Counted from the first letter of the stretch, positions 57,764 through 58,089 are shown. The stretch is 64,000 nt of DNA from a bacterium (GCA_016124195.1 WGOE01000008.1:40682-104681); one strand, 5' to 3'. Made by a program: numbers and translations. Notes: generated by a model from the letters alone, not told the origin.

Positions 57764-57792
57764 TTGCGCCTTTCCGGGTTTGCGTCTAATCA
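57764..57792 (+). promoter_or_regulatory. candidate sigma-70 promoter upstream of the tRNA-Thr fragment
   Basis: TTGCGC (57764-69), exactly 17 nt, TAATCA (57787-92). Lies about 44 nt upstream of the tRNA-like 5' end at 57836. Confidence 0.35.
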
Positions 57793-57835
57793 CCCGCCAC
57801 GCCAGCAAGGATCGCAACCCGATGCCGGCCCCGGC

Positions 57836-57882
57836 GCTGCAGTAGCTCAGTGGTAGAGCACTCCCTTGGTAAGTAAAGGGTC
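57836..57882 (+). pseudogene. tRNA-Thr 5' fragment (acceptor, D-arm, anticodon 5' stem and loop only)
   Basis: 57836-57859 is identical to the first 24 nt of the intact tRNA (GCTGCAGTAGCTCAGTGGTAGAGC). CCTTGGTAAG (anticodon loop, GGT) is also conserved. The 3' anticodon stem is unpaired (CTCCC against GTAAA) and there is no T-arm. Confidence 0.7.
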
Positions 57883-58014
57883 TTTGCAGTGATTATTGTT
57901 TGAAGTGAAGTGGTTACGGGTTAGGAAGTTTTGCTGGGGGTGCGAGTGGGGGAGCGGTGCTTTCCGGCCCCTTGCAAGGAAAAAGCCGGGGCTGTAAACC
58001 CCGGCCAGTTGTAG

Positions 58015-58089
58015 GCTGCAGTAGCTCAGTGGTAGAGCGCGTCCTTGGTAAGGACGAGGTCGGGAGTTCAATCCTCCCCTGCAGCACCA
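58015..58089 (+). tRNA. tRNA-Thr (anticodon GGU)
   Basis: Hand-folded cloverleaf. Acceptor GCTGCAG/CTGCAGC, D-arm GCTC-AGTGGTA-GAGC, anticodon arm CGTCC-TTGGTAA-GGACG, variable AGGTC, T-arm GGGAG-TTCAATC-CTCCC, discriminator A, encoded CCA. Confidence 0.95.

Follow-up and report, generated by a model that had tools for sequence, protein, structure and literature searches.

Probable tRNA-dependent integration of a small satellite-like element into a resident tRNA-Thr(GGU) gene of an alphaproteobacterium

The stretch of DNA analysed here (hereafter the window: 64,000 nt, GCA_016124195.1 WGOE01000008.1:40682-104681) very probably contains the attL junction of an integrated 9.7-kb satellite-like element, whose integration would be tRNA-dependent and which brings its own tRNA-Thr as a replacement. 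The arm-binding tyrosine integrase of this element would have recombined attP with the anticodon loop of the resident tRNA-Thr(GGU) gene. As attP and attB have only TTGGTAAG in common, the resident gene was split and the tRNA is rebuilt at neither junction. The 5' part would have stayed behind the resident promoter, fused to degenerate element sequence, and the 3' part would have been moved 9.7 kb away, beside the integrase gene, decoding being kept up by a foreign-allele tRNA-Thr(GGU) just inside the P' arm of the element. The 141-nt spacer between the two tRNA sequences would then be the P' arm of attP, with putative arm-type sites, a candidate promoter and a terminator-like hairpin for the leftward genes.

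The locus first shows itself as a direct repeat. A repeat search of the window paired 57836-57882 with 58015-58061 (47 nt, 85% identity, 179-nt period), and the first 24 nt, identical in the two copies as the initial annotation had described, occur exactly twice in the window against none expected from 100 shuffles. The second copy opens the sole tRNA gene that ARAGORN and Rfam find within the 64 kb, a tRNA-Thr(GGT). The features around the repeat are as follows.

56238-57506, minus strand: murA-like gene of the EPSP_synthase family (Pfam PF00275, E 8.5e-103), conserved chromosomal neighbour of tRNA-Thr(GGU)
57763-57792, plus strand: resident tRNA-Thr promoter, CTTGCGC-N15-TCTAATCA, kept in relatives and now preceding a broken gene
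57836-57873, plus strand: resident, native-allele 5' part of tRNA-Thr(GGU), comprising acceptor strand, D-arm, 5' anticodon stem and anticodon loop
57866-57873, plus strand: common core TTGGTAAG at attL, the crossover region (8 bp; anticodon loop plus 1 nt)
57874-57891, plus strand: possible tRNA 3'-half remnant, element-derived and degenerate, with a variable-loop-like GGGTC and a 3' acceptor-like TTGCAGT, T-arm absent
58015-58089, plus strand: complete tRNA-Thr(GGU), foreign allele, element-borne (ARAGORN; Rfam 72.7 bits), 141 nt inside attL

Which of the two copies is resident was established from the native locus in relatives. Eighty Rhodobacterales loci were fetched through the murA-like protein (83-93% identity), the closest named relatives being Tabrizicola and Rhodobacter. 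A tRNA-Thr(GGU) gene lies divergently upstream of the murA-like gene in 76 of these 80 loci and, where the upstream region is readable, stands behind a conserved CTTGCRC-N15-TCTAATCA promoter. The native gene of the closest relatives reads GCTGCAGTAGCTCAGTGGTAGAGCACTCCCTTGGTAAGGGAGAGGTCGAGAGTTCAATCCTCTCTTGCAGCACCA. The fragment at 57836-57873 equals it at 38 of 38 nt (L001, L003-L010 and others), matching through TTGGTAAG and diverging afterwards, and both its position behind the promoter and its distance from murA are native. Given this distance, the conserved promoter and the complete identity, the fragment is what remains of the resident tRNA-Thr(GGU) gene on the 5' side of a break in its anticodon loop. 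A generic sigma-70 scan of 57400-58500 returned zero promoters and missed even the conserved native one, so we used instead a matrix derived from the promoters of 61 native Rhodobacterales tRNA-Thr loci, on which the resident promoter scores 24.7 bits, the best value across 57700-58015; its hexamers lie where they had initially been placed (TTGCGC at 57764-69, TAATCA at 57787-92).

Clear fragments of 38-40 nt ending at the anticodon loop are present at 5 of 85 Rhodobacterales loci (the window, L025, L050, L064 and L114), and 78 of the 85 have none; possible decayed 5'-half fragments in L033 and L107 score no better than shuffles. That similar fragment-spacer-tRNA arrangements recur in other Rhodobacterales, together with the 179-nt period of the repeat, might recall a tRNA gene that was partly duplicated in tandem long ago, with no relation to the mobile element. 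Several observations make such a duplication extremely improbable: the two copies differ in allele, the fragment having the local native one and the intact copy a Roseovarius-type one, all five clear fragments end exactly at the anticodon loop and are followed by spacers that are partly related or unrelated, the missing 3' half lies at the far end of the element, and the great majority of loci are free of any fragment.

The hybrid that integration would have left at attL is not a tRNA. Beyond the core, the fragment had at first been ended at 57882; the Rfam tRNA model in fact extends to 57891, covering 57836-57891 end to end with 23.1 bits, under the 29-bit threshold, with 3 nt in place of the 18 model positions of the T-arm and TTGCAGT as the 3' acceptor strand. 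ARAGORN reports no tRNA at either junction. The segment 57874-57891 may be the leftover of a former 3' half, a tentative reading that we hold loosely because the related spacer of L114 has no such remnant. Other details recorded initially hold, namely the different 5' anticodon stem (CTCCC against CGTCC in the intact gene), the missing T-arm and the 132-nt AT-richer spacer (57883-58014, GC 0.545 against 0.66 for the chromosome). A search of the window for the native T-arm and 3' end, allowing up to 3 mismatches, matched the intact tRNA only.

The lost 3' half was found at the other end of the element, past the end of the window. L081, a 9,608-nt Logan contig from a hot-spring metagenome that encodes the terminase protein, agrees with the window at every one of the 5,969 nt of 58032-64000 and runs on to attR, reaching extended coordinate 67639; attL and attR stand on separate contigs and are joined through this identical overlap. 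Past the integrase start, L081 reads ...GCGAGCTTCTTTT TGGTAAG GGAGAGGTCGAGAGTTCAATCC, which is the native tRNA 3' half, and the order at attR is P arm, core TTGGTAAG and GGAGAGGTCGAGAGTTCAATCC, with no 5' half there. What attL in the window and attR (L081: ...CTTCTTTT-TGGTAAG-GGAGAGGTC...) have in common is the core TTGGTAAG only, and its two positions, 57866-57873 and 67610-67617, give an element length of 9,744 bp. Joined to each other, the fragment and the attR 3' tail restore the native tRNA of the relatives at 60 of 60 nt. In L100, whose integrase is 89% identical, the same P arm is followed by the complete resident 3' half and then by chromosomal genes. In the source run, words of the element and of the chromosome occur at depths of about 17.6 and 18.5, respectively, consistent with one integrated copy. 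The look for a tRNA-derived repeat at the far end, proposed in the initial annotation, was rewarded by the native 3' half beside the integrase on L081, and the initial view of the fragment as the scar of an integration into the resident tRNA gene is borne out, its allele being native and its 3' half standing at attR. The earlier event also invoked there is unnecessary, the present element accounting for both junctions. The suggested att core in the anticodon loop was correctly placed; an attP carrying a tRNA 5' half at its core was not, a separate whole tRNA gene lying 141 nt away instead. The element is presumably still able to excise. Its circle would have an attP junction reading ...GAGCTTCTTTT-TGGTAAG-TAAAGGGTC..., as expected from attL and attR; the exact 22-nt junction is absent from viral and JGI metagenome contigs, and a 33-nt word of the spacer is absent from the JGI metagenome contigs.

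Logan contigs of the run that yielded L081 break at tRNA sequences and none crosses the spacer, a pattern that would also be seen had k-mers shared among tRNA genes led to a chimera in metagenome assembly. We give this very little credit. In two independent wastewater metagenomes, contigs of about 95% identity span 57835-58032 and 57867-58017, running unbroken from the fragment through the spacer into the beginning of the intact tRNA; L114, a different MAG, shares both the architecture and the identical foreign tRNA; and attL and attR are reciprocal about the 8-bp core. In view of the independent spanning contigs, the fragment-spacer-tRNA arrangement is not an assembly artefact.

To the right of the tRNA all genes are phage-like and on the minus strand, and GC falls from 0.66 to 0.61. 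The part of the element that lies in the window contains the following.

57874-64000, no strand: window portion of the 9,744-bp integrative element, the remainder lying past the window end
58068-58358, minus strand: first element ORF, 96 aa (L081 9282-9572), no Pfam or PADLOC hit
60173-61573, minus strand: terminase large subunit, TerL (Terminase_6N, E 8e-6; PHROG 2, E 2e-22)
61849-62346, minus strand: TerS-like protein, 165 aa (PHROG 309, terminase small subunit, E 1.4e-5; weak match)
63023-64000, minus strand: C-terminal part of a primase-helicase (RepB_primase plus VapE-like; VapE-like domain E 3e-63)

From the far end, the gene order is integrase, 201-aa ORF, AlpA/HTH_17, primase-helicase, TerS-like, 91-aa ORF and TerL; the AlpA-like gene, the 201-aa ORF, the integrase and the attR core at 67610-67617 are outside the window. 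On L081, the integrase (399 aa) has Arm-DNA-bind_3, Phage_int_M and Phage_integrase domains, and the primase-helicase, which passes the window end, is whole (745 aa, 2380-4617). The AlpA/HTH_17 protein is excisionase-like, and TerL is 25-27% identical, over at least 90% of its length, to the annotated TerL of Roseobacter and Rhodobacter phages. About five or six ORFs are without a family match, and no capsid or tail genes were recognised in the element.

It was the protein database, with its contigs, that supplied close relatives of the element. Within 185,579 species genomes integrase relatives are at most 36% identical and TerL relatives were not found; within IMG/VR integrase relatives reach at most 31%. 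The integrase of L101, 53% identical, sits at tRNA-Thr(CGU) and that of L102/L103, 48% identical, at tRNA-Gly(GCC), with the same gene order in each; other relatives target tRNA-Arg(CCG) (73% identity) and tRNA-Thr(GGU) (50% identity). From these targets it follows that the integrase family recombines in anticodon loops. In L101 and L102, the intact far-end tRNA and the integrase-side copy form perfect repeats of 46 and 48 nt, respectively, that start in the anticodon loop, and the tRNA is rebuilt at the junction, which is the classical restoring design. To judge from these comparisons, the element in the window would be a deviant within its family, retaining the 8-bp core only.

The wider family of 9-10-kb elements (L081 1-9608; L101 9700-19000; L102 3600-13000; L103; L104; L106) has a fixed gene order: integrase, small ORF, AlpA-like, primase-helicase, TerS-like, small ORFs, a TerL-like protein of ~470 aa and a protein of ~275 aa. 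The TerS-like protein was recognised in L081 alone, and a capsid, portal or tail gene in no member of this family. A large terminase of its own is unusual for a satellite-like element. The tRNA-Gly(GCC) relative also encodes, opposite the integrase end, a 334-aa TIR_2-domain protein (L102 12971-13975; L103 11043-12047), which may be defence cargo.

The intact tRNA-Thr at 58015-58089 lies inside the element boundary and is part of the mobile element, as the initial annotation had supposed of the complete copy. At 8 positions it departs from the native allele; in our reading of the cloverleaf, these would amount to compensatory changes in three stem pairs, a G:U pair turned into G:C and a change at one unpaired base. 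Such a compensatory pattern points to a second functional allele and not to decay. With 1 nt changed, this foreign allele is the native gene of two Roseovarius MAGs (L116 and L119), and an identical copy follows the fragment and spacer in L114. The tRNA is presumably expressed, and needed by the host. The 96-aa ORF is convergent with it and overlaps its 3' end by 22 nt (58068-58089). The identical 75-nt foreign-allele tRNA-Thr was also seen in two very AT-rich contigs, L109 and L112 (binned as Pseudomonadota and Paracoccaceae).

The locus might also be read as the product of two events, in which an older element left fragment and spacer as its scar and the present element later entered the tRNA at 58015-58089 in the classical manner, giving it its 3' half. 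The related integrases are indeed classical, scars of fragment plus spacer exist without a downstream element (for example in L033), and the 3' halves found in the intact tRNA and at attR stand in direct repeat, differing at 5 of 37 nt. What makes this history unlikely is the allele at attR: the 3' half there is native, and its GGGAG pairs perfectly with the CTCCC of the fragment and not with the CGTCC of the intact tRNA, so that the gene preceding such a second event would have been broken. Moreover, the 46-48-nt repeats of the classical relatives are perfect, against the 5 mismatches here, a 10-mer is common to the spacer and the integrase-proximal arm, and the spacer and the identical foreign tRNA travel together in L114. 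The older event would, in any case, still be a non-restoring integration. We prefer a single non-restoring integration by the present element.

The 141 nt between core and tRNA (57874-58014) occupy the place of the P' arm of relatives, and three features were delimited in them.

57935-57956, plus strand: putative arm-type integrase sites of the P' arm (TGGGGGTGCG, AG, TGGGGGAGCG), recurring in the P arm
57971-58000, plus strand: promoter-like site CTTGCAA-N15-TGTAAACC, ending 14 nt ahead of the intact tRNA
57984-58006, minus strand: terminator-like hairpin and T-run (10 pairs, 7 of them G-C; tail TTTTTCCTTGC)

The promoter-like site scores 14.0 bits on the native-promoter matrix (99th percentile in shuffles, 8.1), and its leader length is within the short 12-18-nt class of native genes. 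From this matrix match, the element's tRNA probably has a promoter of its own at 57971-58000, and we infer that it works. The resident promoter can thus no longer be called the only one, as it was when the sole promoter was seen in front of the dead copy. Transcription of the intact gene by read-through from the resident promoter, an idea that the spacer site weakens, may still occur, no plus-strand terminator being predicted between the two, but it is no longer required. The hairpin GCCGGGG-CTGTAAA-CCCCGGC, initially put at 57983-58003, lies at 57985-58005 and, with its flanking A-run, scores as a minus-strand terminator. It overlaps the plus-strand promoter-like site within 36 nt, the hairpin loop being the -10 region, and would end the leftward transcripts of the element once these have passed the tRNA in antisense. 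A GGGGT/ACCCC hairpin of different stem sequence stands at the equivalent place in L114.

As for the arm-type sites, the 10-mer TGGGGGTGCG, with TGGGGGAGCG after it, recurs ~20 nt from the integrase start codon, in the P arm. L101 (TGGGTGTTTTTT) and L102 (TTGGGGTAGAA) each have a motif of their own in both arms, at comparable positions and in direct orientation. A test on shared 8-mers was uninformative, since 38-52% of shuffles share an 8-mer too, and the argument is therefore based on 10-12-mers and consistent positions, one shared 10-mer per element having roughly p 0.05 alone. With these recurrences, 57935-57956 probably represents arm-type integrase sites. We also considered the spacer as a structured RNA and rejected this, the fold of 57836-58014 being no better than shuffles (z = -0.75); the spacer sequence had no match in sequencing runs labelled RNA.

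The anatomy of the locus fits tRNA-dependent lysogeny, reported for the actinobacteriophages Fionnbharth (K4), LeBron (L1), Gaia (X) and others (Guerrero-Bustamante & Hatfull, mBio 2024, PMC10865867). There, an arm-domain tyrosine integrase uses a core of 8-17 bp, the tRNA is not rebuilt and the phage carries the cognate tRNA; relatives with integrases of the same family rebuild the tRNA, with cores of about 43-52 bp, and the phenomenon was predicted outside actinobacteriophages (PMC10865867). Here, likewise, we find (i) an arm-domain tyrosine integrase, with attB in a host tRNA gene and putative arm-type sites beside the core, (ii) an 8-bp core, within the range of theirs, a tRNA that is not rebuilt and a tRNA of the same anticodon on the element, and (iii) integrase relatives that restore their target, with repeats of 46-48 nt against about 43-52 bp; dependence of the host on the element's tRNA, were the split gene otherwise unique and essential, would complete the likeness. 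Unlike in those phages, the host is an alphaproteobacterium (Paracoccaceae, near Tabrizicola/Rhodobacter) and the target is tRNA-Thr(GGU), the carrier is a 9.7-kb element without recognisable capsid or tail genes and not a full temperate phage, and the replacement tRNA stands only 141 nt from the core, which makes a visible fragment-spacer-tRNA tandem.

A nearer host is Sinorhizobium meliloti, for which two reports describe tRNA genes inactivated by phage-related integration, with element-borne foreign copies instead (PMC11476347; PMC12429752). In common with the elements of PMC11476347 are the alphaproteobacterial host and a replacement gene for the same isoacceptor that resembles the genes of other alphaproteobacteria. 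The bacterial order and the elements are different, and the likeness is one of description (PMC11476347).

Classical anticodon-loop islands (the sublocation classes of Williams 2002; Islander, PMC4383910) have in common with the element the anticodon-loop crossover and a displaced native 3' half that marks the integrase end (L081, L100), and the classical relatives L101 and L102/L103 share its integrase family and gene order. In classical elements the tRNA 3' half lies directly at the attP core and the gene is regenerated at attL; the 3' segment here is, unlike theirs, a T-armless remnant, with a separate whole gene instead. The restoration that marks the islands of Islander and Williams is seen in L101 and L102 and is absent here, the attL hybrid lacking a T-arm and having a mismatched anticodon stem. 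The remark in the initial annotation that textbook integration at a tRNA 3' end would not leave such an arrangement was thus well founded, neither junction rebuilding the tRNA. Phage satellites (P4-like, PICI) resemble the element in size (~10 kb), in the combination of integrase, AlpA-like protein and primase-helicase, and in having no recognised capsid or tail genes; unlike them, it has a TerL of its own and a TerS-like gene, and the hallmark genes of P4, PICI, cfPICI and PLE were not recognised in it.

Other Rhodobacterales loci bear similar traces. In L114, a Pseudorhodobacter MAG, a 5' fragment of that genome's own native allele is followed by a 137-nt spacer, homologous in part to that of the window, and by the identical foreign tRNA. 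A degenerate-pattern search for further junctions of the L114 type returned L064 and L114 again and nothing else. The spacers of L025 and L050 align poorly to that of the window, and for this sequence difference we treat them as a putative different element lineage with the same strategy. L025 (1-630, minus strand), from Pseudorhodobacter antarcticus, has a fragment, a 97-nt spacer and an intact tRNA-Thr that is directly followed by an integrase gene; this gene looks different from that of the window element and ends at the contig edge. L025 may represent a second element lineage using the non-restoring strategy at the same tRNA.

In L002, L033, L107, L115 and L117, 100-150 nt of unrelated sequence separate the conserved native promoter from an intact tRNA-Thr, and these upstream regions look like old versions of the arrangement in the window. 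In L033 an ABC-transporter operon lies downstream of the tRNA and the element is absent. A scar without its element indicates that such scars can outlive the element, the foreign gene being left as the working copy.

More speculatively, and short of the point where we would expect it to be true, it may be that satellite-like elements with their own terminase genes practise tRNA-dependent integration in the Rhodobacterales, swapping the resident tRNA-Thr(GGU) repeatedly and permanently for foreign alleles and leaving fossil 5' halves behind. If so, such fossils, fresh or decayed, would stand between the conserved promoter and the working gene, and a core tRNA gene would have been replaced horizontally across an order, driven by mobile elements. 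The locus in the window itself suggests a route by which foreign tRNA alleles may replace resident ones. It would extend tRNA-dependent integration, for which experimental proof so far comes from actinobacteriophages only, to an environmental alphaproteobacterium and to a small incomplete-phage element. It also offers a natural comparison, in that within one integrase family (48-53% identity) and gene order the target tRNA is rebuilt by some elements and not by this one, and the T-armless attL remnant may record the transition between the restoring and non-restoring strategies. Integration of this kind would account for a class of pseudogenes, tRNA 5' halves that precede working tRNA genes. 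In annotation, half a tRNA ahead of an intact one can therefore flag where an island begins or ends, a boundary that would be misplaced by tools designed to look for a 3' fragment at the far end.

Two repeats elsewhere in the window were noted in passing. At 48905-48988, a 12-nt tandem repeat (GGTCTG/GGTCGCCGTCTG-like units) forms five overlapping 36-nt copies and probably encodes a short peptide repeat. The stretches 29564-30437 and 33085-33967, about 3.5 kb apart, are 71% identical over 300 nt and 79% over 52 nt, a similarity that suggests neighbouring paralogous genes.
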